From: an uncultured Gemmatimonadales bacterium
GTDB taxonomy: Bacteria; Gemmatimonadota; Gemmatimonadetes; Gemmatimonadales; GWC2-71-9
Direction: 5' to 3'
Length of the DNA: 64,000 nucleotides
Assembly (NCBI GenBank): GCA_965652025.1
Contig: CBFGTM010000005.1
Span: 3,771 to 67,770 of the forward strand
The translations under genes and the position numbers were made by a program. A model generated the notes under the pieces. The model did no database searches. It saw only the letters and a list, made by a program, of their open reading frames with translations, and was not told where the DNA came from. Of this stretch, positions 21,344 to 50,376 are shown in pieces (the stretch's first letter is position 1; each line of letters starts with the position of its first letter).

Positions 21344-21473
21344 TGCGAGCGGGCAGAGGCGGATTGCGTGACACGTGGATGCGCGGGCAGGGTGCCCCGG
21401 TCCGGAACAGGGGCGGAATATAGTAGGATTCGGGAGGCTGGAGCCTGCCTGAAAGGGGGGGCGGGGGACGCCC

Positions 21474-22466
21474 TCAGTCGCCGACGAGCGCCCGCCTGTC
21501 CTCAAGCTCCTTGAAGAGCCGGCTCTCCCGGGGATTCCGAGCAGCACGCTGGCGGAAATAATCGATGGTCTGCGCCAGACCCTCGGCTAAACCGATCTTC
21601 GGCTCCCAACCCAGCCACTCGCGGGCGCGGGTGATGTCCGGTTTCCGCTGGGTTGGATCGTCCTCTGGCAGCGGTCGGTAACTGATCTTGACGTCGCCGC
21701 CGACCATGCGGAGAACCTCGTCGGCCAACTGGCGAATAGTGAACTCGACCGGGTTGCCCAGATTCACCGGCTGGTGTCTCTCCGAGGCGGCCATGAGGCG
21801 GATCAGCCCATCGACCAGCTCGTCCACATAGCAGAAGGATCGAGTCTGTTCACCCGACCCATACACCGTCAGCTCCTGGCCGCGTAGTGCCTGTACAATG
21901 AAGTTGGAAACTACCCGGCCATCGTTCTCCGCCATCCGGGGCCCATAGGTATTGAAGATTCGGGCGATGCGAATGTCCACCTTGTCCTGACGGTGGTAGT
22001 CCATCATCAGTGTTTCGGCGATCCGCTTGCCCTCATCGTAGCAGGAGCGGGGGCCGATCGGGTTGACGTTGCCCCAGTAGCTCTCCATCTGAGGATGCAC
22101 GGTCGGGTCACCATAGACTTCGGAGGTCGAGGCCTGAAGGATCCGGGCGCGCAAGCGCTTGGCCAGCACCAGCATGTTGATGGTGCCGAGGACATTGGAT
22201 TTGACCGTCTTGACCGGGTTGTACTGGTAGTGGATCGGCGCCGCGGGGCAGGCCAGGTTGTAGATCTGGTCCACCTCGAGGAAGAGAGGCTCGGTGACGT
22301 CGTGCCGGAGCACTTCGAACCGCCGGTAGTCGAGCAAGTGCTCGATATTTTCCCGACGTCCGGTGAAGAAGTTATCCAGGGCAATGACGTGGTGGCCGTC
22401 CTTGAGCAGCCGCTCGCAGAGGTGAGAGCCGATAAAGCCGGCACCGCCGGTCACGAGGATGCGCAT
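21474..22466 (-). CDS. uxs: UDP-glucuronate decarboxylase (UDP-xylose synthase), extended SDR
   Basis: [34 protein letters not shown] (YxxxK), [14 protein letters not shown] 22466 chosen over the longest ORF at 22796. Confidence 0.9.
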
Positions 22467-22811
22467 GGTCCCGTTCGAGTTGAGGGGTGGATACCGCCCT
22501 TGACAACCAAGCCTAATTTCGTGTGACCACCCAGGGCATCTTCCATACCCTCGAGGGTCTTTCTGAACGTGCCCGACGGCGACTCCAACTTGTTGTAACC
22601 TATCACCACCCGGATTGTGCCAGCCGTCCCCCGAGTCCGGCCTGCAGGCCAGTGTTGCACCGGTGCTACAGTTATCTATGGGGGCCTCGGGAGGGACACC
22701 ACCGTAGGGTGAAAACTCCTGCATTCTTGTTGAACTTACGTTCCGATCTTCCAGCCGGCTAGATACTCTCGCACGCCCTGACCGCTCTCTCTTCAAGCTC
22801 GCGGGCGCGGC

Positions 22812-23522
22812 TTAGAGGCACCGCCGGAGCTCCAGCACCTGAATCAAGTTGGCCCATATCGTCCGGAAGTTGTTGACTTTCGAATGGCCAGCAAGCCGCG
22901 GCCGGATCCCGGTCGGAATGCTGGTTACCCGGTAGCCGCCCCGGGAGGTGCGAATGATGAGCTCCATCAACACAGCCCAGCCTCGCCCCTCCGACTCCAA
23001 TTCGATTTTTTCGAGTAACCCTCGGCGGAACATCAGCACGCCTTGGAAGGTGGGCAGTGAGCCGAACAGGGCTCGATAGAGCAGGCGCTCGAGCAGCGAT
23101 AGCATTCGGGAGAGAACCATGCCTGCCCGCCTCGGGATGTACCCCAATACCATATCCTGGCTTGGCATGGCCGCTAACAGCTGCTCGATGGAGGACGCCG
23201 GAAATTGACCATCCGCGGGAAAGAAGGTGAGATAAAGTCCCCGTGCCTCGGCAAAGCCGGTGCGATAGACCGCGCCGAGGCCGCCATTGGGCGTATGGTG
23301 GATGACTCGCACCTGCTGACTTTGCCGAGCCAAATCGTCGGCAATCTGACCAGTGCCGTCGGTGCTGCCATCGTCGATAATCAGCAACTCGTACTCAATC
23401 CCAAGCCGCTGAACCGCCGCGGTAATCTCATCCGCGACGATCTTCAAAGAATCGGCCTCATTGTAGGCCATGATGACAATGGAAAGCTGGAACGACGGCT
23501 CTGGAGGGGATGTCTCGACCAT
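22812..23522 (-). CDS. GT2 polyprenyl-phosphate glycosyltransferase, ArnC/DPM1-like
   Basis: 236 aa from ATG 23522. SIVIMAYNEADS, LLIIDDGSTDGT, short C-terminal region typical of ArnC-like enzymes. The longest ORF (to 24074) runs through the formyltransferase gene in another frame. Confidence 0.85.
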   Translation of the reverse strand: MVETSPPEPSFQLSIVIMAYNEADSLKIVADEITAAVQRLGIEYELLIIDDGSTDGTGQIADDLARQSQQVRVIHHTPNGGLGAVYRTGFAEARGLYLTFFPADGQFPASSIEQLLAAMPSQDMVLGYIPRRAGMVLSRMLSLLERLLYRALFGSLPTFQGVLMFRRGLLEKIELESEGRGWAVLMELIIRTSRGGYRVTSIPTGIRPRLAGHSKVNNFRTIWANLIQVLELRRCL

Positions 23523-23553
23523 CAAGAACGCTCCGGGCCGCGCGAGCAGGACC

Positions 23554-24447
23554 TCACCCAGGTACCACGCCCTGATGCAGTCGTTCGCGCGAGCTCCGCA
23601 GAACAGCGCCGGGTGCACCGCGGCGACCGCGGTACTCAATCTCTTGCAGCCAGAGAAGTCCTTCACCCGTCGCGACCGCAACATCATTGTTGTCGCGTCC
23701 GACGACTTGCCCTGGGACCGCACAGGAGTGCTCGCGCCAAGGGCCTGGTCGTGCGCGCCAGACGACCAGATGCTCGCCGCGATATTGAGCAAAGGCGCCG
23801 ACAAAAGGCTCGCTAGATGCGCGCACGAGTCGCCAGATGTAGTCGGCTGGACGCCACCATTCGATCCGGCCATCCTCCGGGCTGCGGGGGTAGCAATGGA
23901 GGGGGGTGCCGGTTTGCGGCACGGGAGAGTTAGCACCGAGAAGGTTGCTGAGAACCTCGCTGAACATACCGGGTACGTCACGGCGGAGAGCGGCGTAGAG
24001 ATCCCCGATGTACGTTTCTGGAAGCAGAGGGAGACGACGCTTGAGAAAGATGGGACCCGAGTCGAGCCCTGCATCCATCCGATGTATGGTCAGGGCAACG
24101 GAGGATTCTCCGTTCAGTATCGCCCAAGCAAATGGCGCATTCCCGCGATACCGCGGAAGATCACCTCCATGGGCGTTGAGAATACCATGCGGAAAGAGGG
24201 CCAACGTTTCTGGAGGTAGTCGGGTAGGCCAGTTGACGCTTACCGCCACATCCGCATCGAGCCGCGTCGGATCCTCCGTCAGTTCACTACCTAGGTCGCG
24301 GGCACACGCGACCCAGTGGTCACGCGTGAGGTCCGACTCTGCGTTCTCGGGTGCAATCGCAATGCCCACGATCCGGTGCCCCTGGTTGTGAAGCAGGCGA
24401 ACCGTATCAAGCAGCACGGGGCCACGTCCGATGGCCGCGACGTTCAT
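23554..24447 (-). CDS. Formyltransferase (Fmt / ArnA N-domain-like)
   Basis: ILNAHGGDLPRYRGNAPFAWAI and HRMDAGLDSGPI (Asn/His/Asp catalytic pattern of N10-formyl-THF transferases). ATGA overlap with the upstream aminotransferase. Confidence 0.85.
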   Translation of the reverse strand: MNVAAIGRGPVLLDTVRLLHNQGHRIVGIAIAPENAESDLTRDHWVACARDLGSELTEDPTRLDADVAVSVNWPTRLPPETLALFPHGILNAHGGDLPRYRGNAPFAWAILNGESSVALTIHRMDAGLDSGPIFLKRRLPLLPETYIGDLYAALRRDVPGMFSEVLSNLLGANSPVPQTGTPLHCYPRSPEDGRIEWWRPADYIWRLVRASSEPFVGAFAQYRGEHLVVWRARPGPWREHSCAVPGQVVGRDNNDVAVATGEGLLWLQEIEYRGRRGAPGAVLRSSRERLHQGVVPG

Positions 24448-25598
24448 CGGCGATTTAACACTTCCTCCAGGAGTGCCGCCACCACTTTCCGCTGCTCGTC
24501 TGCGGTGATCCTGGAATGCATTGGGAGTGCTATCGCCCGAGCGGCCAGATCATCGGTCACCGGGAAGTCGCCGTTGGTATATCCTCCCTGCTTGGCCCAG
24601 AACCTTGTGAGCGGCACATGGTGGGTTCCGATTCCGACCTCGATTGAGCGGCCGCGAAGTCGGGATATGATCTGTGGCTGTTGGTCTGCCGCCACCCGGG
24701 GCAGCAGGACGACATATGCCTGGTATATGTGCGCTGACGGCTCGAGCGCCAGCGGCTTCCGTATTTCAGTCCCGTCCAGCAGGCGATCATATTCCTCGGC
24801 TACACGGCGCCTGTGGCCGAGCAGCTCGGAGAGTCGCTGCATCTGGACCAGGCCCATGGCGGCTTGAAATTCAGTGAGTCGGTAGTTGAAACCGGGCGCG
24901 ACGAACTCCGGGCTGGAGGATAACGGATCGAGGCCATGGTTGCGCAGAGTTCGAACCCGACGAGCGAGCTCTGGCCGGCTGGTCGTCACTGCTCCTCCCT
25001 CTCCGGTCGTGATCACTTTTCGAGGGTGGAAACTGAAACATCCCAGCACCCCCCAGGCTCCAGCTGGCCGGCCCTGAAGCCAAGCTCCCAAGGCGCAGGC
25101 CGCATCCTCGATGACGTAGGCATCATGACGCGTAGCCACGTCCAGAATTGCGGGCATATCCGCCATCCCGCCGAAAGCGTGCACCGGCAGGATGGCCTTT
25201 ACCCGCCCGAGCGGCCGCAGTGCATCGGCGAGACGCTCAGGGTCCATGTTGAAGGTGCGCTCATCTATGTCGACGAACAGCGGTTGCGCACCACACAGCC
25301 CGACCGCATTGGCGGTCGCCGGCCAGGAATAGGTCGGAACGGCCACCACGTCGCCAGGACGGACGCCTAGAGCCAAGAGAGCGAGGTGCAATGCCGCCGT
25401 GCCGCTACTCACTACAATCGCATCGGAGCTTCTCGCCGCGGCAGCAATTTGACCCTCGAAGGCCCGAACCCGCTCCCCCTGCACCAAGAATCCGGACTGC
25501 AGGACCTGTGATATTGCCTCCACCTCCTCGGCCCCAATCGAGGGAGAACCTAGGCGGATTAGGCTTTTGTCTCGCCCGCTGCCTGGGTCCGATACCAT
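24444..25598 (-). CDS. DegT/DnrJ/EryC1/StrS-family PLP sugar aminotransferase (ArnB-like)
   Basis: IGAEEVEAISQVLQSGFLVQG, SSGTAALHLAL, FSFHPRKVITTGEGG (PLP Lys). Confidence 0.9.
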   Translation of the reverse strand: MVSDPGSGRDKSLIRLGSPSIGAEEVEAISQVLQSGFLVQGERVRAFEGQIAAAARSSDAIVVSSGTAALHLALLALGVRPGDVVAVPTYSWPATANAVGLCGAQPLFVDIDERTFNMDPERLADALRPLGRVKAILPVHAFGGMADMPAILDVATRHDAYVIEDAACALGAWLQGRPAGAWGVLGCFSFHPRKVITTGEGGAVTTSRPELARRVRTLRNHGLDPLSSSPEFVAPGFNYRLTEFQAAMGLVQMQRLSELLGHRRRVAEEYDRLLDGTEIRKPLALEPSAHIYQAYVVLLPRVAADQQPQIISRLRGRSIEVGIGTHHVPLTRFWAKQGGYTNGDFPVTDDLAARAIALPMHSRITADEQRKVVAALLEEVLNRR

Positions 25599-26545
25599 TG
25601 GATCGTCCGTTGAAGGCCGTCTTCCAGGTCGACCTGCGGCTCATACCCGAGCAGTCGTCGAGCCTTCTCAATGTTGGGAATCCGCAACTCCACGTCCGTC
25701 TGGTCCCACGGTATGAATGACATTTTTGACCGGGAACCGGAGAGGCGCACAATTTGCATTGCCAAGTTGTAGATGGTCACGACGCTGCGCGGATTTCCGA
25801 TGTTGAATGCCTGACCAATCGCCTCGTCCCGTTCGAGGCAGGCCAAGAGCCCGGTGGCCATGTCATCCACGTAGCACCATGCTCGAATTTGACTTCCGTC
25901 GTTGTGAATCGTGATGTCCTCACCGCGGAGCGCCTGGACGATAAAGCGGTGAATTGCCCCCTCGCCGATCTGGCCTGGACCATAGATGTTGAACGGTCGA
26001 ACCGAGACGGCGGGTATGCGGAATTGCTTGTGGTAGTTGTGAGCGAGGTGCTCAGTCGCGAGCTTACTGACCGCATAGGTCCAGCGAGCTTCACCGACAG
26101 CTCCGAGGCTGGTCAGATCGGCTTCCCGCACGTTGTACGCGTAGGCCCCGAACACCTCGCTGGTAGAGAAGTCCACGAATCGCTCGAGACGCGGCTGTCG
26201 GCGGGCAGCCTCCAGCATGTTATACGTGCCCAGGATCGCCACCTTCATGGTGTCGACGGGCATCCGAAGCACCGTATCCACTCCGGCGATCGCCGCCAGG
26301 TGAACAATGATCTCGCAGCCTTCTGCGGCGGCGTGGGCTGCGTCCGGATCGGTGACGTCCCCGCAGATGATCTTCACGTTGGGATGATCTGAGAGACGGG
26401 TATGACGCAGCGCGTTGCGGTGGTAATTGTCCAGGATGACGATCTCGTTCTGATCCACTAAGCGCCCCGCCAGCGTCGTCCCGATGAAGCCCGCGCCTCC
26501 TGTGAGAAGGATCTTTTTGCCTTGAATCACTGACCCTCCTGCCAC
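25559..26545 (-). CDS. Extended SDR nucleotide-sugar enzyme, decarboxylase-type (ArnA C-domain/UXS-like)
   Basis: [23 protein letters not shown] (T-S-E), YAVSKLATE (YxxxK). Exact reaction not determinable from sequence. Confidence 0.85.
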   Translation of the reverse strand: MAGGSVIQGKKILLTGGAGFIGTTLAGRLVDQNEIVILDNYHRNALRHTRLSDHPNVKIICGDVTDPDAAHAAAEGCEIIVHLAAIAGVDTVLRMPVDTMKVAILGTYNMLEAARRQPRLERFVDFSTSEVFGAYAYNVREADLTSLGAVGEARWTYAVSKLATEHLAHNYHKQFRIPAVSVRPFNIYGPGQIGEGAIHRFIVQALRGEDITIHNDGSQIRAWCYVDDMATGLLACLERDEAIGQAFNIGNPRSVVTIYNLAMQIVRLSGSRSKMSFIPWDQTDVELRIPNIEKARRLLGYEPQVDLEDGLQRTIQWYRTQAAGETKA

Positions 26546-26619
26546 TGGGGAGCCGCGTTGTTGACTCGGGAAGACTTACCACCAAGCTGTGATGCGAGAA
26601 TATCGGAGGTGGTGCAAAG

Positions 26620-28233
26620 ATGATGCCCAGCTTGGAACAGGCAAGGTCATGGCCCACCAGATCGCGGGGGGACGCCAAGCAGACCCGGGCTGCCTTCGGT
26701 CGGGCGGCGATCCTGGCAATTGGGATCGCGTTGACGGCGATCATCTATCTGCCATTTGCCGCCAGGCCCTTCGATGTGCTGGACTTCGGGGAATTTCTAC
26801 CCCTGATCCGCAGCAATCCAACATTCCTCACTCAGCTAAAAGCGCTACTCCGCTACTATGTCGAGGATCAGGGCCGGCTTAACGTGATACCGTATTTCTT
26901 TATTGTCACCAAGTGGTTCTTCTTCGGGTGGCACGTCCCCCTGTGGCAGACTGCGCGCTTCATCGAAATGTGGCTGATCGTCGCCGGCGTCTACGTCGTG
27001 CTTCGAGATCTCGGTATCGCACGTTTTGGCGCTCTATGCGGTGCCGCACTGTTTGTCGTCGCCCCTCCCGCCATGGCCGTTTGGGTAAGGCTGACCGTCG
27101 CCGAGCCCTTCGGGACCCTCCTGCTTCTCCTGGCGACACATCTGGCGACCGGATATCAGGAAGACGAACGCTGGCGCTTGCGGGCCGGTGCTATCGTTCT
27201 CCTACTTCTGGCAATTGCATTCACCAAGGAGATGCTGCTTGCCACCACGCCTTTCGTGCTCGCGGTGGCGTGCACCCGCAGCCCCGACGGACGTTTCGAG
27301 CCGCTCAGAGCCAGTCACCGCAATCGCTACCTAGTTGGTCTTGCCGGCTCGGTCCTGTCGGTGGCGGCGATGGCCATCGTGTGGGTGGCACTCCATGCGA
27401 AAGCAGATTCCCTTGCAAGGCAATATGGTACGGTCGCGGTTTCAATTGACAATTTTCTCGCCCCGCTCCTTCTGTTCCTGCTTCCGGGATATTCCCTCGG
27501 ATTTCCCGCTTTTCCTCGGGCCTTGATCATTGCTGACGAGGTGTTTCTGGCCATCCTCGCGGGCGGCTGGTGGCTCGCATTCAGAAACGCAGTCGACAAA
27601 TCGGAGATGCGGAGGCGCCTGGCAATACCGCTCCTCCTCCTACTCCCGGCCGCATTGGTGTATGTGCCATGGCATGTTGAAGTCGCCTATGGTTTGCCTT
27701 TCCTTCTCGCCCCGGCTTTCCTACTCGGGTACGCACTGACGTCGATTCAAGGTTTCTACAAGCGCCGCGTCGTCCTCATCGGAGCCCTCACACTTCTTAT
27801 CCTGGTATCGTGCGCGATTAGCGCGCACCACTTCGCCCGGCGCGCCCTCGCCTTGCAGCGGGTTAACGCTGCAGTCGCAGCTAGAATCGCAGCATCCACT
27901 GCACAGGACTCGACTCTCGTTACCATGGCCACTCCGCCGAAGCTGGCCTGGATTGGCCCTGGGCCGACATTAGCTCGCTACGTGCTGGCGACGACCGGGC
28001 ACCCGGTCGTAAGCCCCGTGCGAGACATCTCCTGCGCCGAGCTCGAGCCTGCCCTGCAGGCGAGCTCGAGGCTGCTCATCGTAAGCTACCATTTTCGCTG
28101 TGGCAGCCTCTCCCATCCAGATGTGATCCTTCGTCGCTACTTCCGATATCTTGACCTTTCAACCTTGGCACTCAGCGTCGACTCTGTTCGGGCTGACTTG
28201 TTGTTCCACAATCTGCGGGGTGGGTTGCCCTGA
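26620..28233 (+). CDS. Polytopic membrane protein, GT-C-like (possible ArnT-type transferase); family unresolved
   Basis: 537 aa, many hydrophobic segments, FDVLDFGEF loop after the first TM segment, AFTKEMLL motif. Divergent from the Arn-like cassette. The 3' end overlaps the convergent gene by 62 nt. Confidence 0.6.
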   Translation: MMPSLEQARSWPTRSRGDAKQTRAAFGRAAILAIGIALTAIIYLPFAARPFDVLDFGEFLPLIRSNPTFLTQLKALLRYYVEDQGRLNVIPYFFIVTKWFFFGWHVPLWQTARFIEMWLIVAGVYVVLRDLGIARFGALCGAALFVVAPPAMAVWVRLTVAEPFGTLLLLLATHLATGYQEDERWRLRAGAIVLLLLAIAFTKEMLLATTPFVLAVACTRSPDGRFEPLRASHRNRYLVGLAGSVLSVAAMAIVWVALHAKADSLARQYGTVAVSIDNFLAPLLLFLLPGYSLGFPAFPRALIIADEVFLAILAGGWWLAFRNAVDKSEMRRRLAIPLLLLLPAALVYVPWHVEVAYGLPFLLAPAFLLGYALTSIQGFYKRRVVLIGALTLLILVSCAISAHHFARRALALQRVNAAVAARIAASTAQDSTLVTMATPPKLAWIGPGPTLARYVLATTGHPVVSPVRDISCAELEPALQASSRLLIVSYHFRCGSLSHPDVILRRYFRYLDLSTLALSVDSVRADLLFHNLRGGLP

Positions 28234-30076
28234 ACACCTCGAACGGAGGGACTGGCGTAAGCTTCTCGTACTGACTCCGCACAGTGCCGGCGATCCGAAC
28301 CGAGGCGGGAGTATTGTACTTATCCGTGGGATCGTAAAGCACAAGCTTAGGTGGGCGACAGCGGAGCACTTGTAGCACTGAGTCGAGGTCGGCGGCGGAT
28401 CTGATCCCGACTGCTGTATTGTAAAACCTGAACGGATTGGTCCGGCGGCCGAGAAAATACAACTCAGCGTTGTTTGGAAGCGCAAAGATCGTGTCGCCCA
28501 GCTGAGTCTCGCGGTCGATCAGGCCCACAAGTGACTGGTAGAGCTGGGCATCGGCGGCGTCGACGTATATCCCCGCTACAGAGGAAGGAAAGGGTGTAAC
28601 GGGAAAGCGCCGTTCGCCCGCCACCCCGCCCTGAAGGTTGAGCGTCAGTGGCATTGCTGCCTGATAGTACAGTGCCACGCCGGCGATCGCGGCTGAGAGA
28701 GCCGCTACCAGTCCTCTGATGGCTGCGCGTGACTCGGCCGTTAGAAGCAAGACGGCGGCTAAGCTCAGTCCAACGGTATAAAACAGGTAAATCGGCACCT
28801 GGTAGTGCAGCGACACGAGGGCGTAGAACGTGGCAATGACCGGCAAAGGATGAATGCTCGAGCGGCTGCCGCGAACCAGGGCGCGGAACAGGAGTAGGCC
28901 CAGCAGCGCTGAAATCAGGAGCAAGGAGGTGTACAGGCCGGCATTGAGGAGTCTGTCCACCTCACCGGAATGAAAGCCACGCCAGGCCAGGATTCCGATC
29001 ATGAGGTATCCCGGCCTCTTCATGAATTCCAGCCGAGGAAGGGCTAGAGCGGCGCCAAAGGTATCCTGGACCCAGCTCCCCATGGCTCCATGCGCGAGGT
29101 GGTAAGCGAAGAGCGGAAGGCCCGAGATCAGCCCACCGAGCGCGAGCTTGCCCAGGGTGGTGACTACCTCCCGGTTGGACCGGTTCGTCCGTCGCCACGC
29201 GCAAGCCAGAACTGCAAGGGGCCAGACGCCGAAGAGAACCCAGCCGAATGGGTCGGTGGCACGCAGGATGTACCCCATGAGCACGAGGGCAATGAGAGCC
29301 AGGATTGCCCACGCCAATACTGGACGGTCTCGGCCGACACTCCCGGGCTTCTCCAGAACCAGGAAGACCAGCACCCCAGCGGCGAGGAAGACGCCCGAAA
29401 GCTGGCGGAACAGGAAGGCAGTGCCAAGCAAGATCCCAGTTACGACATCTCGCGACGCAAGTCCTACCCGGCTCCACGAAAGCCAGGCAATCGTCACGAC
29501 TGCCAGGAACAAGATGTACCAGTTTGCAGTTGGGTTCAGAAACTGAACGAAACCCAGCGACGTGAGTGCCAGAGCGCTCACGATGGCTGTAGTAAATCCC
29601 CGATTCCGAAGAATCAGGAACATGAGTCCTGCTTGAATGACGGTCAGCATCGCCAGCGGATACCGCATGCTGACTATCCGGACGCCAAAGAGCGAGAAGG
29701 CAGCCGCATTCGCGAGGTTGACATAGCCGGGATAGAGGTCCTGAACGTCTCGATGGAGCACCTGACCCAGCAGGATGCGCTCGGCAACGTGGGCGTAGAG
29801 CCCCTCATCGGCCGGCGCCCAAAAGCGATTGTGATAGATGATCATGACGATGGTGCTGATCAGCACCACCAGAATGAGAGCGGCCCCGGACCGCAGATCC
29901 CAGGGGCCGGAGCTCCATCCGGAGTTGTCGCAGCTACCGCCGAGACGGGGGTTTTTTTGGCTCAGCTGTCGCTGGCGGGGAGTCGGAGCCGCCCGACTCT
30001 TCTGGGGTCGGAGTTTCAACTCGGCTCTCGGGTGGCTCCGGTAGGGTAAGGGTACTCTGGCCCCGGGAATCGACAC
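28172..30076 (-). CDS. GT-C membrane glycosyltransferase, ArnT/PMT (GT39/GT83)-like
   Basis: Polytopic. After the first TM helix (AALILVVLISTIVMIIY) comes the loop FWAPADEGLYAHVAERILLG, matching the acidic DE-loop of ArnT/PMT enzymes. Start uncertain: GTG 30076, TTG 30019 or further downstream. Confidence 0.7.
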   Translation of the reverse strand: MSIPGARVPLPYRSHPRAELKLRPQKSRAAPTPRQRQLSQKNPRLGGSCDNSGWSSGPWDLRSGAALILVVLISTIVMIIYHNRFWAPADEGLYAHVAERILLGQVLHRDVQDLYPGYVNLANAAAFSLFGVRIVSMRYPLAMLTVIQAGLMFLILRNRGFTTAIVSALALTSLGFVQFLNPTANWYILFLAVVTIAWLSWSRVGLASRDVVTGILLGTAFLFRQLSGVFLAAGVLVFLVLEKPGSVGRDRPVLAWAILALIALVLMGYILRATDPFGWVLFGVWPLAVLACAWRRTNRSNREVVTTLGKLALGGLISGLPLFAYHLAHGAMGSWVQDTFGAALALPRLEFMKRPGYLMIGILAWRGFHSGEVDRLLNAGLYTSLLLISALLGLLLFRALVRGSRSSIHPLPVIATFYALVSLHYQVPIYLFYTVGLSLAAVLLLTAESRAAIRGLVAALSAAIAGVALYYQAAMPLTLNLQGGVAGERRFPVTPFPSSVAGIYVDAADAQLYQSLVGLIDRETQLGDTIFALPNNAELYFLGRRTNPFRFYNTAVGIRSAADLDSVLQVLRCRPPKLVLYDPTDKYNTPASVRIAGTVRSQYEKLTPVPPFEVFRATHPADCGTTSQPEQSRR

Positions 30077-30653
30077 CCATGCCGACCTTGGCGTCCCCGG
30101 ATCTATCGGCGAAGACCAGAGTGGAGGAGCCGCCTCGTACCAGACTCAGAACCGTTCGGGTGGTCCCGTTCTCATCGGCAAGCAGCAGGCTGACCGTCTG
30201 GTCCGGCAGCAGACCCAACACGGCACGAGAGCGCCCGGCGGAATCCCGGATGGTGATTCCCGATGCTCCATCAGGCAGCGAGGCCAGGCTCAAGCCGGCC
30301 TTGCTGCCGGGTGAGTGGAGGCTCAGGCGCATGGCTCCATTCTGCGAAGCCCCCCAGGTACCGCGTATCGCTCCGTTGGCGTCACGCAGCAGGAACTGTT
30401 TCGCCTCGACGACCTCGGCCACGGTGCCGGGCAAACCGTGGTTGGCGGACACGATCACCAGCGCGGTGGCCAGCCCCAGCAGTAACGCCCCGGTAACGAC
30501 GGTTCCCATCCAGAGGCGCCGCAGCCGGCGATTCTCCCGGGCCTGTTCCTCAATGCGAACCGTCAGGCCCCGCTCCAGCTCGTGCATCTGCCGCCGGACC
30601 GGATCTGGAGGCACCTCTGGCTTGAACGGATCGCCCTGCTTAATGCCGGTCAT
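29934..30653 (-). CDS. Membrane-anchored protein with four ~25-aa beta-hairpin-like repeats and a Pro/Glu-rich tail
   Basis: ATG 30653 forms an ATGA overlap with the ATPase stop. One TM helix (VVTGALLLGLATALVIV). Repeats: FLLRDANGAIRGTWG..MRLSL, ITIRDSAGRSRAVLG..VSLLL, LLLADENGTTRTVLSL, LVFADRSGDAKVGMG..STLTL. Confidence 0.6.
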   Translation of the reverse strand: MTGIKQGDPFKPEVPPDPVRRQMHELERGLTVRIEEQARENRRLRRLWMGTVVTGALLLGLATALVIVSANHGLPGTVAEVVEAKQFLLRDANGAIRGTWGASQNGAMRLSLHSPGSKAGLSLASLPDGASGITIRDSAGRSRAVLGLLPDQTVSLLLADENGTTRTVLSLVRGGSSTLVFADRSGDAKVGMGVDSRGQSTLTLPEPPESRVETPTPEESGGSDSPPATAEPKKPPSRR

Positions 30654-31984
30654 GCCGCGCCACTCACCAGGAAGTATGATCGACAGGCACCTTCCAGCAG
30701 ATCCTGACTCAGCTGCGGTCTGGTCTCCCGGTACTTGGCGATGTCCTCGACATGAGAGATGAGATCGCGTGGATGGCACCCGCGAGGAGGTATCCCAAGC
30801 TTGTCGTAGAACTCGCTAAAGACGTACGCCACCGCCTCGGACTGGTAGGTCAGCCCCTCCGCCGCGCACTGCGCGCGGAAGATCTGCTCGTACTGCTCCC
30901 GGGTCGGATCGGTGACCGGAATCTTGTAGTGGATTCGGCGCAGGAAGGCTTCCTCCACCAGCTCAGCAGGGTCGAGGTTGGTCGCAAAAATCAGCAGACA
31001 GTCGAACGGAACGGGGAACTTGCCCCCGGTATGCAGCGTCAGGTAATCGAGCCTCTTTTCCAGAGGTACGATCCATCGATTCAGGAGGTCGCGGGGTGGA
31101 ACTCTCTGCCGCCCAAAATCGTCTACGATCAAGACGCCGCCATTCGCCTTTACCTGGAATGGGGCCTGATACAACTTCGTGAACGGATCGTAGCGCAAGT
31201 CGAGCTGGTCCAGAGTGAGCTCACCGCCGGTGAGCACCACCGGCCGCCGGATCCTGACGTAGCGCCGATCATAGCTGGGCCCGCTCTTCCATAGCGACTC
31301 TATCCCGACAACTTGCTCCTCCGTCTCGATCTCCTGGTGGTGGACCGGGTCGTAGATCAGCATGATCTGCCCATCCACATCCACCGCAAACGGCAAGTAC
31401 AGCTCCCCACCCAGCAAGTCGGAGATTGCCTCAGCAATGGCCGTCTTGCCATTTCCTGGATGGCCGTACAAGAATATCGATTTGGAGGAGTTGACCGCCG
31501 GCCCCAAGATGTCGAAGATGGCTTCGTCCAGGACCAGGTGGCTGAATCCCGCGCGAAGAGACTCCTGGGTAACCTGCGCCAGTTTGATCGACTGAGCATG
31601 GATCCAGCGATCGTACTGCACCAAAGGCACCGGTGCTGGGCCAACGTACTGGCTGGCCTCCAGGGCCTCCCTGGCGCGGTCCCGCCCCTCGTTGACCAGA
31701 TCGAAGAGGTAACTACCCCGATGAGGCGCGGTTGTGCCGCGAACCTCAATGAACCTGCGCTGCTGGAGAGTCAGCAGCTCCTCATCGACCAGTGGAAACG
31801 GTAGTCGGACAAAATCGGCCAGGTACTGGCCGGTCCGGGAGCCCTGGACATACAGCACCTTGAGCAGCAGATCGCGAACCGCATCGGCCGAGAGGCCGGT
31901 ATCAGCCAGCTTCTCCGGACTAGGCGGAATGGCCAGCGACTCGGCAAGATGCGGCTCGTGAGATATCAATGGCGTGGCGCTCAC
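30650..31984 (-). CDS. AAA+ ATPase with unassigned N-terminal domain
   Basis: Walker A LYGHPGNGKTAIA, Walker B VLIVDDFGRQ, IFATNLDP (sensor 1), AFLRRIHYKI. GTG 31984 forms a GTGA overlap with the DUF192 stop. Confidence 0.85.
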   Translation of the reverse strand: MSATPLISHEPHLAESLAIPPSPEKLADTGLSADAVRDLLLKVLYVQGSRTGQYLADFVRLPFPLVDEELLTLQQRRFIEVRGTTAPHRGSYLFDLVNEGRDRAREALEASQYVGPAPVPLVQYDRWIHAQSIKLAQVTQESLRAGFSHLVLDEAIFDILGPAVNSSKSIFLYGHPGNGKTAIAEAISDLLGGELYLPFAVDVDGQIMLIYDPVHHQEIETEEQVVGIESLWKSGPSYDRRYVRIRRPVVLTGGELTLDQLDLRYDPFTKLYQAPFQVKANGGVLIVDDFGRQRVPPRDLLNRWIVPLEKRLDYLTLHTGGKFPVPFDCLLIFATNLDPAELVEEAFLRRIHYKIPVTDPTREQYEQIFRAQCAAEGLTYQSEAVAYVFSEFYDKLGIPPRGCHPRDLISHVEDIAKYRETRPQLSQDLLEGACRSYFLVSGAA

Positions 31985-32379
31985 GAGGCCGCTTCCAGGC
32001 TTGACGGTGGCGGAGCGGTTCTTGAAGGGGCGGTCCAGACCAGGACGTCGCCTAATCTGGTGCCCGATTCAGCCAGTGCGCCGCTCGGGAGCTCCAGTGC
32101 GTGAGCGGCATTCCGGTGCCAGCGGGTTCGGGATCCTGGCGGCAGGGAAGGGTAGAGGGCTATCACTGTGCCTCCCTGGTCCAAGAATGCCACGTCAAGC
32201 GGGAACCGCATGCCATACATGTGCACCGAGGCGCAAGGCGTCAGTAAGAGACCCTCTCCTGGCCCCGGCTCCGGTCGAGCCAGCATCCCCCTCAGCCGTG
32301 GCAGCCAGCGGTCCGCGATGCGGATCCGGGATCCTAGCTCCTGTTGAGCCCGGGTATTGACCACTCGAACCAGCCGCAT
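31981..32379 (-). CDS. DUF192-family protein
   Basis: RLRGMLARPEPGPGEGLLLTPCASVHMYGMRFPLDVAFLDQGGTV matches the DUF192 (COG1430) core pattern. TGATG overlap with the tadC stop. Confidence 0.8.
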   Translation of the reverse strand: MRLVRVVNTRAQQELGSRIRIADRWLPRLRGMLARPEPGPGEGLLLTPCASVHMYGMRFPLDVAFLDQGGTVIALYPSLPPGSRTRWHRNAAHALELPSGALAESGTRLGDVLVWTAPSRTAPPPSSLEAAS

Positions 32380-40666: not shown

Positions 40667-41131
40667 CTACTCGCCCCGCATGGTTGCATCGGTATTGATA
40701 GTTACGGTCGAAGGCACGCCAGCCCATTTGAGAAGAACGTGGACCAGCGGCATTCTATGCCGAGCGGCAACGCTCACCGTCATCTCTCTGCCGGTACCGT
40801 CCGTGCTGTGAAAGCAGGCGGTGATCGGGGAGCAAAACGGATCAGCGCTCGAAATAACGATGGTACTAGTAGTCGTATCGACATTTGAGAGAGCGAGCCG
40901 CTCCCGGATCTTATGCTCAACTTGGGCCAGCGTTAGCGTGTTATCCATGACGACCGTGTACCGGGCACCCTCCCGGGCTGCATCGGTTACGGCCTGCTTG
41001 ATATTCCACGCCCGCCCGAACTCGATTATGGCAGCTATGAACAGAAGAATTAGCGGCAGCACCAGGGCGAACTCCGCCAGCGCTTGTCCGCGCCAGCTGG
41101 TGCACCGTGCAAACCACCTTCGGCCGCTCAT
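40667..41131 (-). CDS. tadE: TadE-like pseudopilin
   Basis: RGQALAEFALVLPLILLFIAAIIEFGRAW (TadE N-terminal motif). ATGA overlap with the cpaA stop. Confidence 0.85.
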   Translation of the reverse strand: MSGRRWFARCTSWRGQALAEFALVLPLILLFIAAIIEFGRAWNIKQAVTDAAREGARYTVVMDNTLTLAQVEHKIRERLALSNVDTTTSTIVISSADPFCSPITACFHSTDGTGREMTVSVAARHRMPLVHVLLKWAGVPSTVTINTDATMRGE

Positions 41132-41652
41132 AGACGGACCCCTTCACCGAACCACCAGATGAGTGTTCCTAGGGCGATTGGCACGCCGTAGGGTATCGTG
41201 AGGGCACCGGGCGATTCGAGCTTTCGAATCGGACCAGCTCGCCCCAGAGTGAGCCAGGACTTGATCACGTCGACCGTGTTCAAGACTAGGAGAGGAAGAA
41301 CCCCCCTGAGGCTCATGGTGAGCAGCGCATACGCTGCTCCCAGTACGGCAATCAAACCCAAGGCTCCCAGCACTTCGCCGGAGCCGAGGAATGCGCCCAC
41401 GGCTGCCAACAACTTCACGTCTCCTCCGCCGATCGCGCGAAGGACATAGAACACGAGCCCCAACCCGAGTGCGATCCCTAATCCACCCAGCCCTTGCAAC
41501 AAGATGTCTAACCCGAGCGGGGCTCTCAGGATCACGGCTGCAGCGAGCCCCGTCATCGTGAGCTGGTTGGGAATTCGCCCGGTGTTTACATCCCACCAGG
41601 CAGCGGTGCAGACAAATACCAGGATGGTAAGGGTCGCCGCTGCCTGGGTCAT
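41128..41652 (-). CDS. cpaA: Prepilin peptidase CpaA/TadV (A24 family, no methyltransferase domain)
   Basis: 174-aa polytopic protein with the two catalytic Asp contexts (WWDVNTGRIPN, GGGDVKLLAA). Confidence 0.88.
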   Translation of the reverse strand: MTQAAATLTILVFVCTAAWWDVNTGRIPNQLTMTGLAAAVILRAPLGLDILLQGLGGLGIALGLGLVFYVLRAIGGGDVKLLAAVGAFLGSGEVLGALGLIAVLGAAYALLTMSLRGVLPLLVLNTVDVIKSWLTLGRAGPIRKLESPGALTIPYGVPIALGTLIWWFGEGVRL

Positions 41653-41662
41653 CCCCAGGGCC

Positions 41663-41848
41663 TCAGCTGGCCTTTGCGGCCGCTGTCGTCAGATCGCTGT
41701 TGGCCTTGGTAAAAATCTTCTGAATCGAAATCCCCATTCCCTGAATCAGGAGTACAACACCGATCACAATTAGTCCGAGCAGCAAGGCATACTCGGCGAG
41801 TCCCTGACCTGACTCATCGTTCCAGAGCTTCTTAGCTAGCGCCATCAT
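41663..41848 (-). CDS. flp: Flp-family pilin (copy 1)
   Basis: 61 aa. Flp processing motif G/LAEYALLL followed by a hydrophobic helix. GGAGGA Shine-Dalgarno upstream of ATG 41848. Confidence 0.9.
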   Translation of the reverse strand: MMALAKKLWNDESGQGLAEYALLLGLIVIGVVLLIQGMGISIQKIFTKANSDLTTAAAKAS

Positions 41849-41929
41849 ATGGTGCTTCCTCCAGTGCTGTTGGTGTCGTACAACGGGGGTCAAAATCCTG
41901 CAGGCTCCGGTACGGGTCTAGCAAATACT

Positions 41930-42115
41930 TCAGCTAGCTTTCGCCGCCGCAGTTTCGAGATCGCTGTTCGCCTTGGTAAAGATCTTTTGGATCGAAATCC
42001 CCATGCCCTGAATCAGGAGTACAACCCCGATCACGATGAGGCCCAGCAGCAGTGCATACTCGGCGAGTCCTTGCCCGGACTCGTCAGCCCAAAACCTCTT
42101 CGCGAGTTCTCTCAT
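41930..42115 (-). CDS. flp: Flp-family pilin (copy 2)
   Basis: 61 aa. From DESGQG onwards identical to copy 1 except one residue. AGGAGGAG Shine-Dalgarno upstream of ATG 42115. Confidence 0.9.
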   Translation of the reverse strand: MRELAKRFWADESGQGLAEYALLLGLIVIGVVLLIQGMGISIQKIFTKANSDLETAAAKAS

Positions 42116-42153
42116 GGGATAGCTCCTCCTACCTTGCTCGTTGGGGGTCAGGG

Positions 42154-42351
42154 TTATAAGGAAAAACAAACCAATCCCCGCAAGGGGATGCTGCTGGCGC
42201 TCACTTGGCGCTGACGAGAGAACTGCATTTCTCTGAGGGGGCAGGTCTCGTCCTGCGGGATTCCTTCGGTACACAGATATAGCACGCATTCGCTGGTGTC
42301 GCCAGTGACCTCAGGGAGGGCTATCGCTCTGTGGAAAAAGATCCGAGCCAT
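42154..42351 (-). CDS. Candidate small Cys-containing ORF (65 aa) upstream of flp
   Basis: ATG 42351 is preceded by GGAGG with a 6-nt spacer. Product: MARIFFHRAIALPEVTGDTSECVLYLCTEGIPQDETCP.... Codon usage is less GC3-biased than in neighbouring genes and no homologue is recognised, so coding status is doubtful. Confidence 0.25.
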   Translation of the reverse strand: MARIFFHRAIALPEVTGDTSECVLYLCTEGIPQDETCPLREMQFSRQRQVSASSIPLRGLVCFSL

Positions 42352-42522
42352 GATATACCTCCGGGAACGCAGGTCCGCTAGAGCCACCATCGCGTCATCA
42401 TGGGAACGGCGGTGGCAGTCACGAAGCTTGGTTGGCAGAGCAAAACTTCTGCCTCCAGTGGGCCGCCTATATTAGTTCTCCGGGTCGCCACTCCAGCAAC
42501 CCTCGCCCTCGCCACCAAGTCA

Positions 42523-44163
42523 ATGACTTCTAAGAAGTTGGCGGCTGATGCCGTAGCCAACGGGATACCTTCCCTCGAGCATGCAACATCACGAGGGCCG
42601 TGGCATCATCGCATCGCACCGTCGCCTGCGGCCCTCATCTTTGTACTGCTTGGGTTAGCAGTCCCTCTCCTACTTCAGAAGCCGCTGCTGAACTCCGATG
42701 GGGATCTGGCTCGGCATCTGGCGCACGGGCGCTACATGCTGGAGCATGGCTCTCTCATTCGGGCGGACCCGTTTTCCTTCACCCGCCCCGGCGCTCCCTT
42801 TGTGGGATTCGAGTACGGAAGTCAGCTCCTCTACGCGTTGGCAGAGCGGGCCGGAGGACTGCCCGCAGTCGCTATCCTGGCCGGGCTCTTGATCGCGCTG
42901 ACGTACGGGCTGCTTACGCAGCTTCTGTTGCGACGGGGCGTGGATCCGCTTCTGACTTGCCTCACGGTCGGAATGGCTGTCGCCCTGGGAATCGAGCATT
43001 GGACCGCACGCCCGCACCTTTTCACCTTCGTGGCGGTGGTCCTGCTGTTCGGGATGCTGGAGCGCCCAGGCGCATCTCTGGAGCATGGAAGGTGGAAGCC
43101 TGGGCTGTATGCGGCTGCTCTCTTTGTCCTCTGGGCCAACCTGCACGGCGGATTTGTGTATGGGTGGGTTCTTATCGCCCTCTACCTGCTTGGCAGCTTG
43201 GGTGAGCTGGTCTGGGGTGACGATCGGCAAATGTGGAAGCTTCGGGTCAGGTACTATATGAGCCTGCTGGTGACGGCCGTCGCGGTCACCCTGGTGAATC
43301 CTCGGGGATTGGAGCTCCACCGGCACCTGGTGGCATTCTTCCACAAGTCCTTCGCGCTGCGGAACACGTCCGAGTTCGTCTCACCCGATTTCCACGAGAC
43401 GAGCGGAAAGGTCTTCTTGGGGGTTCTGCTCCTGGCATTCGGTTCCCTGGGGCTGAATTCTCGACGCCCAAGTCTGCCTCATTTCCTGGTTATCTGCGCC
43501 GGGATAGCGTTCGCCCTCATTTCGCTCAGAAATATTCCACTGTTCGGCCTCACCGCCTTGCCTCTGCTCGCATTCAGTCTGGACTCTGCCTGGCGCCGGC
43601 TGCCCGACCCCACAGGGGTACGAGGCAGGTTCGAGGCCACTGTCCGGCAAACCAGTACCCTCCCTTGGATTCTCGCGGCGATAGTTCTGCTGGGCGGACT
43701 GGGAATGACTCGCGGTCGCATCGGATCGCTGCAGGTGATTCAGGATCGATTCGACCCGAGGGTGTTCCCGATTGACGCCGTTGCCCACGCTCGGAATGCG
43801 AATCTCCAGGGTCATTTATTCAGCGAGTTTACCTGGGGAGGTTATCTCGTCTATGCCTGGCCGGAGCAGAAGATTTTCATTGATGGTGGGACTGACTTCT
43901 TCGGGGACGACGTGTTTCGAGAGTACCGGTCGATCAAGCTCTTGGAGCCTGGGTGGCGCAGTCGCTTGGCGCAGCGGGACATTGCACTCGCCTTATTGCG
44001 CCCGGAATCGGCGCTGGCCCACGAGCTGGCCCGGGAGGCAAGCTGGCCCATCTGGTACTGCGATTCGCTAGCAGCTGTGTTTCGTCGTACCCCAGCTCCA
44101 CCGGTCATCTCCCTGACCGCGGCGGACTCAGCAGAGCAGGCCCTGAATCATTGTGGGCAATGA
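42523..44163 (+). CDS. Polytopic membrane protein, GT-C-fold-like (family unresolved)
   Basis: 546 aa from ATG 42523. After the first TM helix comes the loop NSDGDLARHLAHGRYMLEHGSLIRADPFSFT, then many TM segments and a C-terminal soluble domain. The longest ORF starts at 42400. Confidence 0.65.
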   Translation: MTSKKLAADAVANGIPSLEHATSRGPWHHRIAPSPAALIFVLLGLAVPLLLQKPLLNSDGDLARHLAHGRYMLEHGSLIRADPFSFTRPGAPFVGFEYGSQLLYALAERAGGLPAVAILAGLLIALTYGLLTQLLLRRGVDPLLTCLTVGMAVALGIEHWTARPHLFTFVAVVLLFGMLERPGASLEHGRWKPGLYAAALFVLWANLHGGFVYGWVLIALYLLGSLGELVWGDDRQMWKLRVRYYMSLLVTAVAVTLVNPRGLELHRHLVAFFHKSFALRNTSEFVSPDFHETSGKVFLGVLLLAFGSLGLNSRRPSLPHFLVICAGIAFALISLRNIPLFGLTALPLLAFSLDSAWRRLPDPTGVRGRFEATVRQTSTLPWILAAIVLLGGLGMTRGRIGSLQVIQDRFDPRVFPIDAVAHARNANLQGHLFSEFTWGGYLVYAWPEQKIFIDGGTDFFGDDVFREYRSIKLLEPGWRSRLAQRDIALALLRPESALAHELAREASWPIWYCDSLAAVFRRTPAPPVISLTAADSAEQALNHCGQ

Positions 44164-45134: not shown

Positions 45135-45170
45135 ATCCGTTCTGCCACGCTATTCCTGCCGCTCCCGGGG

Positions 45171-46829: not shown

Positions 46830-46927
46830 TTTGGAAGTGGCTGTTCGAGTGGCTACGGGAGCAGAGCCGCCACCTGGAAACGGCAGGTTCGCAGTGGGGA
46901 TGTTGGGGTTTTCGGGGGTGATACGGT

Positions 46928-49231: not shown

Positions 49232-49361
49232 CTGCCTTCACAACAAGTTAGCCAGGTTTCCATCCAATGTACAATGAGATCGGCGGGGGCGCGGCCGGGA
49301 GACCGGACTAACATGCACCAGCGACCAGCCCGCCGCCAGTTCTGAGGGCTTGCAGACTCGG

Positions 49362-50339: not shown

Positions 50340-50376
50340 TGGATCTGGGAGCCGCACGCATGAACGTCCCTTCAGC

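Follow-up and report, generated by a model that had tools for sequence, protein, structure and literature searches.

A predicted Arn-type sugar cassette with an exchangeable N-acyl gene in an uncultured Gemmatimonadales bacterium

Which sugar is made by four tightly packed minus-strand genes at positions 22812-26545 of a 64,000-nucleotide stretch from an uncultured Gemmatimonadales bacterium, and where is that sugar delivered? The stretch (assembly GCA_965652025.1, contig CBFGTM010000005.1, positions 3,771 to 67,770 of the forward strand; its whole length is called the window hereafter) carries in this cassette the genes for a predicted short-chain dehydrogenase/reductase (SDR), a DegT-type aminotransferase, a formyltransferase and a family 2 glycosyltransferase (GT2). 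A preliminary description had likened them to the Arn system. In E. coli and Salmonella, the Arn activities build undecaprenyl-phosphate-4-formamido-L-arabinose for the modification of lipid A, and ArnA is a fusion of the decarboxylase and the formyltransferase.

Our analyses incline us to the view that the cassette is an Arn-type single-sugar lipid-carrier module, built from enzyme lineages different from those of enterobacterial Arn, and that its sugar probably keeps its N-acyl group. In this proposal, the SDR would use NAD+ to oxidise C4 of a UDP-hexuronate, most simply UDP-glucuronate (UDP-GlcA), and decarboxylate it, releasing a UDP-4-keto-pentose. The DegT enzyme would transaminate C4, probably to the L-arabino configuration, and the formyltransferase would N-formylate the amine with N10-formyl-tetrahydrofolate. 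The GT2, free of transmembrane (TM) segments, would then move the formamido-pentose onto polyprenyl phosphate at the inner membrane face, a flippase would carry the lipid-linked sugar across the membrane, and a divergently encoded 537-aa glycosyltransferase of the GT-C fold would pass it to a periplasmic or outer-envelope acceptor. The sugar would stay N-acylated (neutral) in the final glycan, with the acyl group differing between strains. The sequences directly show the family of each gene product, the kept catalytic residues, the GT-C fold, the conservation of the cassette and the gene swap; substrate identity, stereochemistry, lipid linkage, acceptor and formyl retention are the deduced parts of this scheme.

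The cassette and its predicted enzymes

The genes concerned are arranged as follows.

28172-29869, minus strand: PMT_2-type GT-C (Pfam PMT_2), 565 aa; last gene of a Tad pilus run
26620-28233, plus strand: GT-C-fold membrane protein, 537 aa, divergent from the SDR operon
26546-26619, 74 nt: intergenic spacer separating the SDR operon from the divergent 537-aa GT-C gene, presumed to be a shared control region
25559-26545, minus strand: SDR, 328 aa from a GTG start; a gene of the 8VR2 clade
24444-25598, minus strand: DegT aminotransferase, 384 aa
23554-24447, minus strand: formyltransferase, 297 aa; the strain-variable slot
22812-23522, minus strand: GT2, 236 aa, TM-less
21474-22466, minus strand: classical UDP-xylose synthase (UXS), 330 aa, downstream of the GT2 after a 345-nt gap

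The packing reported for the four cassette genes was confirmed base by base at every coordinate. The SDR and DegT genes overlap by 40 nt (SDR stop TAA at 25561-25559, DegT ATG at 25598), the DegT/formyltransferase junction is an ATGA at 24447-24444 in which the formyltransferase ATG overlaps the DegT TGA, and a 31-nt gap lies between the formyltransferase TGA, ending at 23554, and the GT2 ATG at 23522, which has a GGAG 8 nt to its 5' side. The quoted protein motifs, DAGLDSG included, were all found in the translations. The cassette gene string was called identically on six independent ENA metagenome contigs; metagenome gene callers place the SDR start at 26530, giving 323 aa rather than the 328 aa obtained from the GTG.

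The SDR has the N-terminal GxxGxxG NAD site (GGAGFIG) and matches Pfam Epimerase (E = 1e-53) and GDP_Man_Dehyd (E = 8e-49). Among solved structures it matched PDB 8VR2 best (375 bits, 54% identity), ahead of human UXS1 (162 bits), 3SLG (102 bits) and the ArnA C-terminal domain (71-74 bits). In an alignment with E. coli ArnA-C, the UXS of the window, 8VR2 and relatives, the T-S-E triad, the Y-x-x-x-K motif and the arginine equivalent to ArnA R619 and human UXS1 R277 were invariant; the ArnA residues with equivalents in the SDR are T432/S433/E434, Y463/K467 and R619. An 'RWxYxxSK' motif is common to the SDR clade and ArnA and has no counterpart in UXS. A neighbour-joining tree with 200 bootstraps, whose small reference set limits it to moderate support, recovered the 8VR2 family as monophyletic (100% bootstrap) and grouped it with UXS and ArnA at 76%, leaving RfbB, Gmd, Fcl and GalE outside; a grouping with RfbB received 5.5%. 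The subfamily placement proposed as a check thus falls on the decarboxylase side and not among the dehydratases or epimerases, and with the catalytic residues kept, the decarboxylase-type assignment of the SDR holds. The further statement that it is of the UXS/ArnA C-domain type stands for the grouping but not for the lineage, which is a separate clade with a solved structure of its own. Very probably, then, the SDR is a UDP-uronate C4-oxidase/decarboxylase that would feed the aminotransferase, similar in function to ArnA-C and separate from it in descent.

Subtyping of the SDR by NCBIfam equivalog models was tried and set aside. The top match was the dTDP-glucose 4,6-dehydratase model (170 bits against a cut-off of 365), and this match does not discriminate because the bona fide UXS of the window also scores best on it and ranks the same models. 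The remaining scores were 120 bits for PRK11908 (UDP-4-keto-pentose/UDP-xylose synthase; cut-off 294), 92.9 bits for the ArnA C-domain equivalog NF005998 (cut-off 777, hence below membership) and 36 bits for the Gmd model. That second, classical UXS just downstream, as previously described, was borne out by 434 bits to human UXS1; since this predicted true UXS adjoins the cassette, it shows that UDP-GlcA should be made or available in the host.

The closest solved relatives come from a trio of genes in Psychrobacter cryohalolentis K5. Cluster membership identifies 8VR2 as K5 protein ABE74400/WP_011512968. In K5, the genes for Wza, Wzb and Wzc are followed by those for a PglF-like dehydratase, a UDP-sugar 6-dehydrogenase, a Gfo/Idh/MocA oxidoreductase and a hexapeptide acetyltransferase; then come a first DegT, the SDR (8VR2), another DegT, crystallised as 8VR3/8VR5 (824 bits), and another hexapeptide acetyltransferase. 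The four biosynthetic genes ahead of the SDR-DegT-acetyltransferase trio match the WbpA/B/D/E route to UDP-2,3-diacetamido-2,3-dideoxy-glucuronate. The K5 O-antigen contains 2,3,4-triacetamido-2,3,4-trideoxy-L-arabinose (PMC8040287). As the conversion of that uronate into that pentose needs C4 oxidation and decarboxylation, C4 transamination and N-acetylation, the trio would supply these steps. Idiomarina has the same arrangement around the SDR as K5, and related arrangements occur on Gloeothece and Pararhizobium plasmids, where tblastn relatives of 8VR2 reach at most 42% identity; the operons of these clade members (K5, Idiomarina and the plasmid loci) place the SDR after uronate-forming dehydrogenases. 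No paper describing 8VR2, 8VR3, 8VR5, 9BGP or 9BGR was found by PDB-code or topical literature search.

The likeness of this trio to the window's cassette extends beyond the SDR to the DegT, for which the K5 protein is a near-best match (37% identity), and to the gene order, in which the SDR precedes the aminotransferase and then an N-acyltransferase, as in the window-type cassettes; in addition, the host O-antigen has a 4-acetamido-4-deoxy-L-arabinose derivative. The trio differs in following WbpA/B/D/E-like genes, in lying in a Wzx-type O-antigen cluster with neither a cassette-type GT2 nor a GT-C, and in adding acetyl where the window would add formyl, and the K5 functions are themselves read from context.

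The second cassette protein belongs to Pfam DegT_DnrJ_EryC1 (E = 1e-103). Its best PDB matches were 9BGP (255 bits), 8VR3/8VR5 (238 bits), perosamine synthase (228 bits) and ArnB (190-197 bits), and it is 35% identical to E. coli ArnB. The pyridoxal phosphate (PLP) lysine in its FHPRK motif aligns with the lysine of 8VR3 and with that of ArnB (FHAIK); such a lysine separates aminotransferases from ColD/E1-type dehydratases. It scored 236.6 bits on the ArnB equivalog NF008658 (cut-off 631) and higher, at 305 bits, on the PseC model, again below the cut-off. The earlier assignment to the DegT/ArnB class of PLP aminotransferases is therefore upheld by the Pfam match, the lysine and the identities to ArnB and the 8VR3 protein, and the enzyme is predicted to be a lysine-bearing sugar 4-aminotransferase.

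The stand-alone formyltransferase contains both Pfam domains, Formyl_trans_N and Formyl_trans_C. Its best PDB matches were the ArnA N-terminal domain (98 bits) and then Fmt (91 bits), with the GDP-perosamine formyltransferase 5VYS also among them, and its N-A-H motif and the Asp of LDSG align to ArnA N102/H104/D140, leaving the triad intact, in agreement with the Fmt/ArnA N-domain class given to it before. The best NCBIfam match was PRK06988 (127 bits, cut-off 316). We considered and ruled out a housekeeping Fmt, because the protein scores 118 bits on the Fmt equivalog TIGR00460, below the cut-off of 201.5, and because the gene is dispensable in a close relative (locus L007, described below), where an acetyltransferase gene replaces it. 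The protein is predicted to be an N10-formyl-tetrahydrofolate-dependent sugar N-formyltransferase.

The GT2 matches Pfam Glycos_transf_2, and its seven top PDB matches are all polyprenyl-phosphate GT2s: the Pyrococcus furiosus dolichyl-phosphate mannose synthase (DPMS) 5MLZ, ArnC three times and GtrB three times. The alignment to 5MLZ spans residues 10-229 and runs through R-x-x-G-x-S-K in the C-terminal acceptor-side region. Among cassette GT2s of more than 33% identity, FFPADGQFP is kept in 22 of 23 and RPRxxGxSKV in 20 of 23, so that both are close to invariant over four phyla; the proline in place of the first Asp spans Gemmatimonadota, Acidobacteriota and Latescibacterota, and an Omnitrophota locus (L025) has FLPADGQIS. 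On the model side, the GT2 scored 47.7 bits on the ArnC equivalog NF007986 (cut-off 529) and 34 bits on the NCBIfam PpgS model over residues 15-201 (cut-off 370, so it is not an orthologue), a haloarchaeal Dol-P-hexose transferase model also gave a weak match, and many GT2 equivalogs scored similarly low. E. coli ArnC is matched better by another GT2 of the window, at 48410-49231 (61 bits), than by the cassette GT2 (46 bits). Of the ArnC/DPM1 layout proposed earlier, the likeness to DPMS and ArnC stands at the level of best PDB matches, but the protein fails the ArnC cut-off and has no TM helices; we predict a polyprenyl-phosphate glycosyltransferase of the DPM1/PpgS-like short form.

The candidate for the final transfer is the 537-aa protein, for which no Pfam, NCBIfam or PDB sequence match was found. 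An AlphaFold2 model from an alignment of 21 homologues (pLDDT 85, pTM 0.87) gave Foldseek PDB matches of which the top 28 are all GT-C enzymes (STT3, AftD, DPY19, ArnT, AftA/B, PglB, Pmt4 and ALG3), at a probability of 0.99-1.00 and with query-normalised TM-scores of 0.27-0.48 over the 28 hits and 0.41-0.48 for the top seven; the ArnT structures 5F15 and 5EZM are among the top matches. D55, just past TM1, is invariant, and an acidic residue is expected in the first extracytoplasmic loop of a GT-C. A full HMMER scan placed 515 clusters at 50% identity in this family (285 at E <= 1e-30), and none of 10 sampled distant members exceeded a Pfam threshold. Given the GT-C fold and the lack of a Pfam match in these 10, it is an unannotated GT-C family, and the modelled protein is a candidate final transferase. 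Homologues adjoin the SDR in seven other Gemmatimonadota loci (L011-L014, L016, L017 and L095). The preliminary description had GT-C candidates flanking the cassette: the GT-C next door is real at the level of fold, but both genes (26620-28233 and 28172-29869) lie on one side only, and the other side holds the UXS, dcd and M1 peptidase genes. The lipid-linked sugar may instead be used by the 565-aa PMT_2 GT-C; this protein gave no hhalign signal with the 537-aa family, in what is a weak test with a single-sequence template.

Conservation of the cassette and exchange of the acyl gene

Related loci were collected from a scan of the GTDB species genomes, in which the SDR family is represented by at least 582 loci, and about 90 loci were fetched; the scan assigned the window to an uncultured lineage of Gemmatimonadales. 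The SDR, an aminotransferase, an N-acyltransferase and the GT2 occur together in 19 of them, from Gemmatimonadota, Acidobacteriota, Latescibacterota and Omnitrophota, and in a further 18 an adjacent DegT is the only partner. Of the 19 cassettes, five carry a formyltransferase (the window type, L008, L010, L092 and L095) and 14 carry acetyltransferases, that is, hexapeptide-repeat or left-handed beta-helix (LbH) acyltransferases of three kinds: a PglD-like one of about 220 aa, one of about 170 aa, and one of 295 aa that has an unknown protein of about 365 aa encoded ahead of it. The last version is seen at L011 4633-6639, L013 10054-12032 and L016, and its composition suggests an acyl group that may be other than formyl or acetyl.

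The best-matching locus, L007, from a Microflora Danica soil metagenome-assembled genome, encodes an SDR 96% identical to that of the window, and the two DNAs are about 89% identical through the GT-C, SDR and DegT genes. The homology is lost 5 nt past the DegT stop and picks up again 18 nt into the GT2 gene (87% identity). Between these points, the 947 nt that hold the formyltransferase gene in the window are replaced in L007 by 707 nt encoding a 224-aa PglD-like LbH acetyltransferase. In the formyltransferase-type cassettes L092 and L095, the formyltransferase is only 46-50% identical and the gene order is the same, which implies that both alleles are old and that the slot is exchangeable. 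The same comparison with L007 indicates that the UXS gene of the window is a strain-specific accessory, as it lies with its 345-nt upstream stretch in an insertion (21428-22796); in L007 the GT2 gene is followed by dcd after 78 nt. Many genes of L007 and L008 match in frame-shifted pieces (five for the 537-aa GT-C, two for the L008 formyltransferase), which looks like long-read indel error rather than pseudogenisation and limits statements on gene integrity at these loci.

The preliminary description had also stressed that the genes stand in reaction order. This is so in the window but not in all relatives: in L010 the formyltransferase gene follows the GT2 gene, and in Acidobacteria the aminotransferase gene comes before the SDR gene. 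At three acidobacterial loci of the Vicinamibacteria (L020, L021 and L024), the aminotransferase encoded upstream of the SDR resembles E. coli ArnB more than it does the window DegT.

The statement that the window has no ArnD-type deformylase and no ArnE/F-type flippase was supported by every scan: phmmer searches with E. coli ArnD, ArnE, ArnF and ArnT against all open reading frames of the window returned nothing at E <= 1, crude gene calls across the window gave no Pfam match to polysaccharide deacetylase or EamA/SMR, and the only small multi-TM open reading frames found by a hydropathy scan were TadV and NuoA. Likewise, tblastn found none of the four Arn proteins in the related loci. Because closely related strains differ in the acyl step and none of its versions is accompanied by a deacylase, we consider retention of the acyl group somewhat more probable than its removal. 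As had been anticipated, the product may remain N-formylated, and the sugar may not be plain 4-amino-4-deoxy-L-arabinose (Ara4N).

Weighing the proposal against its alternatives

Several observations weigh against an Arn-like lipid-carrier module that retains its acyl group. No cassette protein reaches an NCBIfam equivalog cut-off, so all specific activities are deduced. The decarboxylase activity of 8VR2 is likewise deduced from operon context and the known O-antigen, its presumed substrate carries 2,3-diacetamido groups, and the substrate of the window SDR could therefore differ from plain UDP-GlcA; no WbpA/B/D/E-like genes were seen near the Gemmatimonadota cassettes. About half of the fetched SDR loci, mostly from Myxococcota, are without the partner genes tested, and the neighbours of these lone Myxococcota genes are unrelated (TPR proteins, FGGY kinase, PspA) and offered no functional hint. 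The 236-aa GT2 is devoid of a TM-like segment by hydropathy scan and has a P-A-D motif where DPMS, ArnC and both window paralogues have the metal-binding D-A-D, and its AlphaFold2 model (pLDDT 53, below 50 in the C-terminal half, from a three-paralogue alignment) was too poor for a fold search. In hhalign the 537-aa family matched E. coli ArnT with a probability of only 0.9% (E = 0.064), again a weak test with a single-sequence template. In L009, whose DNA is 87-92% identical, the 537-aa gene is deleted (L009 7611-7815 corresponds to window 26717-28226). Finally, a deformylase or flippase could be encoded elsewhere in the genome.

This last point leads to the most conventional alternative, namely that the locus is a canonical Arn system making undecaprenyl-phosphate-4-formamido-L-arabinose, with ArnD-like deformylation and ArnE/F-like flipping encoded elsewhere, which places cationic Ara4N on lipid A phosphates against cationic antimicrobial peptides. 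The four chemical steps would be identical and follow the logic of ArnA/B/C, ArnA and ArnB are recognisably homologous to the SDR, formyltransferase and DegT, and the ArnT structures rank high among the fold matches of the 537-aa protein. We nevertheless judge it unlikely, given the blank searches for ArnD, ArnE, ArnF and ArnT in the window and the related loci, the failure of the GT2 to reach ArnC membership, the hhalign result, and an acyl slot filled by formyltransferase or any of three LbH kinds, which is ill-suited to a transient protecting group with one dedicated deformylase. Somewhat less likely still is a protein acceptor, in which the GT-C enzymes would O-glycosylate the Flp pilins of the adjacent Tad pilus, or other secreted proteins, with the formyl/acetyl swap as antigenic variation. 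For this speak the PMT_2 GT-C gene, which ends the Tad run beside the cassette and abuts the SDR gene in L009 once the 537-aa gene is lost, the two pilin genes at 41663-42289 encoding Ser/Thr-rich C-termini, a second GT2/GT-C cluster on the other side of the Tad locus, and the protein glycosyltransferases STT3, PglB, Pmt4 and DPY19 among the top fold matches. However, adjacency by itself is weak evidence, and we rejected Tad linkage as a conserved feature, since it is found only in the closest relatives L007 and L009, while in Gemmatimonadota cassettes that are more distant the 537-aa GT-C family persists with no Tad genes nearby.

Two further alternatives concern single enzymes. Should the SDR be a 4,6-dehydratase, or some other oxidase that does not decarboxylate, a 4-formamido-4,6-dideoxyhexose of the viosamine or perosamine type would be made instead of a pentose. 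The top NCBIfam match of the SDR, the perosamine synthases that follow 9BGP and 8VR3/8VR5 among the DegT matches, and 5VYS among those of the formyltransferase are in line with this, and GDP-mannose 4,6-dehydratase likewise has a T-S-E motif. Against it, the dehydratase model is also the best one for the true UXS, both it and the Gmd model score the SDR far too low, the Asp of the dehydratase T-D-E is replaced by Ser, the tree places the clade with UXS/ArnA rather than RfbB, and 8VR2 and its relatives sit behind uronate-forming dehydrogenases, all of which makes a dehydratase improbable. We hold it to be slightly more improbable again that the GT2 is an ordinary Leloir enzyme adding the formamido sugar to a growing O-antigen or exopolysaccharide repeat unit, with the neighbouring GT-Cs unrelated. 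Its missing TM helices, its deviant DAD motif and its similarly low scores on many GT2 equivalogs would fit such a role, as would the location of gammaproteobacterial 8VR2-type SDRs in Wzx/Wzy-type O-antigen clusters; on the other hand, TM-less members of the polyprenyl-phosphate class are known (PpgS, DPM1), the seven best PDB matches all belong to that class with the DPMS alignment reaching the acceptor-side region, the association with the GT-C family is conserved, and the cassette has no Wzx, Wzy, initiating transferase or further glycosyltransferases.

Set beside known systems, the lipid-carrier module that we favour would share with the enterobacterial Arn (PmrHFIJKLM) pathway uronate decarboxylation, C4 transamination, N-formylation, GT2 transfer to polyprenyl phosphate and a GT-C acting outside the cytoplasm, with ArnA-C, ArnA-N and ArnB as detectable homologues of the window enzymes. 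It differs in a decarboxylase from another SDR clade (71-73 bits to ArnA-C versus 375 to 8VR2) that is not fused to the formyltransferase, in a short TM-less GT2 far below the ArnC cut-off, in a GT-C with no sequence similarity to ArnT, in the lack of ArnD and ArnE/F in the window and related loci, and in an N-acyl step that is interchangeable with acetyltransferases. The separation of the decarboxylase and formyltransferase genes, to which attention had been drawn, was confirmed but is nothing unusual: in a 2025 survey the fusion occurred in Pseudomonadota alone, chiefly in Gammaproteobacteria, and separate genes were the norm (PMC12650200). A "split ArnA" is thus not novel and is the normal state outside Gammaproteobacteria. 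Separate genes for the two activities are also found in the stand-alone ArnA halves of Burkholderia and Ralstonia (PbgP3, PDB 3SLG; PRK06988; PRK11908), from which the window differs in scoring far under the family cut-offs (102 bits for 3SLG). The Burkholderia/Ralstonia systems retain ArnD, ArnT and ArnE/F.

The loading of polyprenyl phosphate by a GT2 followed by transfer outside through a GT-C is shared with PpgS/Rv3779 (mycobacterial GalN on arabinogalactan), Francisella FlmF2/NaxD/FlmK, Bordetella LgmABC and phage GtrA/B/V, and PpgS is also a short (about 230-240 aa), TM-less GT2. These systems take UDP-HexNAc or UDP-Glc ready-made, and a deacetylase is required in two of them, whereas in the window a dedicated three-enzyme sugar-synthesis arm would be joined to the module. 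What differs here is the 8VR2-clade SDR, the PpgS-like short GT2, the unannotated GT-C family, the phylum, the absence of a deformylase and a flippase from the window and related loci, and the interchangeable N-acyl gene.

Genomic setting and meaning

The remaining features of the window are as follows; it is ordinary chromosome.

gap-pgk-tpi, carA, moaA/E, mdh and sdhA: chromosomal genes ordered ahead of the M1 peptidases, dcd, UXS and cassette
Two M1 peptidases and dcd: beside the UXS, on the cassette side opposite the GT-C genes
About 29.9-42.3 kb: complete Tad/Flp pilus locus, beyond the two GT-C genes
44166-52743 (44.2-52.7 kb): second GT2/methyltransferase/GT-C cluster
Subtilase and nuoA-D: end of the listed window order

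Around the cassette itself, a consensus scan found no sigma-70-like site inside 26546-26619, the counts of sigma-70 promoters and terminators were the same as in shuffled sequence, and Rfam gave no match in the 345-nt gap or near the cassette; the gap also yielded no convincing promoter or terminator. Elsewhere, a c-di-GMP-I riboswitch (Rfam RF01051; 55720-55820, minus strand, 75.7 bits, E = 5e-13) lies directly 5' of a gene for a secreted S8 subtilase with a PKD domain (54161-55699).

The Tad locus has GT2/GT-C genes on both flanks. Its two tandem Flp-type pilin genes (41663-41893 and 41930-42289, minus strand) encode a G/AEY processing motif (…SGQGLAEYALLLGLIVIGVV…) and Ser/Thr-rich C-termini and lie just upstream of the gene for the TadV prepilin peptidase (41128-41652). 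Between tadC and the PMT_2 GT-C gene are genes for proteins of 444 aa and 239 aa with no reliable Pfam family (29934-31984, minus strand) and a DUF192 gene (31981-32379); the three are conserved in L007 and L009 and may be Tad- or glycosylation-associated. The second cluster comprises a PMT_2 GT-C (45171-46829), two TM-less GT2s (46928-47692 and 48410-49231), a methyltransferase and several multi-TM proteins without a Pfam match (42400-44163, 44166-45134, 49362-50474 and 50377-52743). In L008, parts of this cluster directly adjoin the cassette.

To our knowledge, the envelope chemistry of the abundant soil phyla Gemmatimonadota and Acidobacteriota is little characterised. We tentatively raise the possibility, with less confidence than we attach to the module itself, that the cassette and its unannotated GT-C family make up a distinct system for decorating the envelope in Gemmatimonadota, Acidobacteriota and soil phyla related to them, in which a 4-aminopentose is kept N-acylated and the acyl group is exchanged between near-identical strains by precise gene replacement, and which might serve as a serotype-like switch on lipopolysaccharide or Tad/Flp pili rather than as charge-masking resistance. 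It can be tested whether, as predicted, a GT-C family without database annotation delivers a lipid-linked 4-formamido- or 4-acetamido-pentose. The practical value would be modest: several hundred SDR-family loci, the GT-C family and those polymyxin-resistance-like genes that are often flagged in metagenomes from soil could be annotated better. For the biology of these bacteria, the proposal would extend the Arn paradigm to another decarboxylase lineage with a solved structure, a PpgS-like short GT2 and a swappable N-acyl step, and if the acyl group is retained, N-formylation may be a strain-variable end-point feature of the cell surface, in contrast to the transient driving step that it is in enterobacteria.

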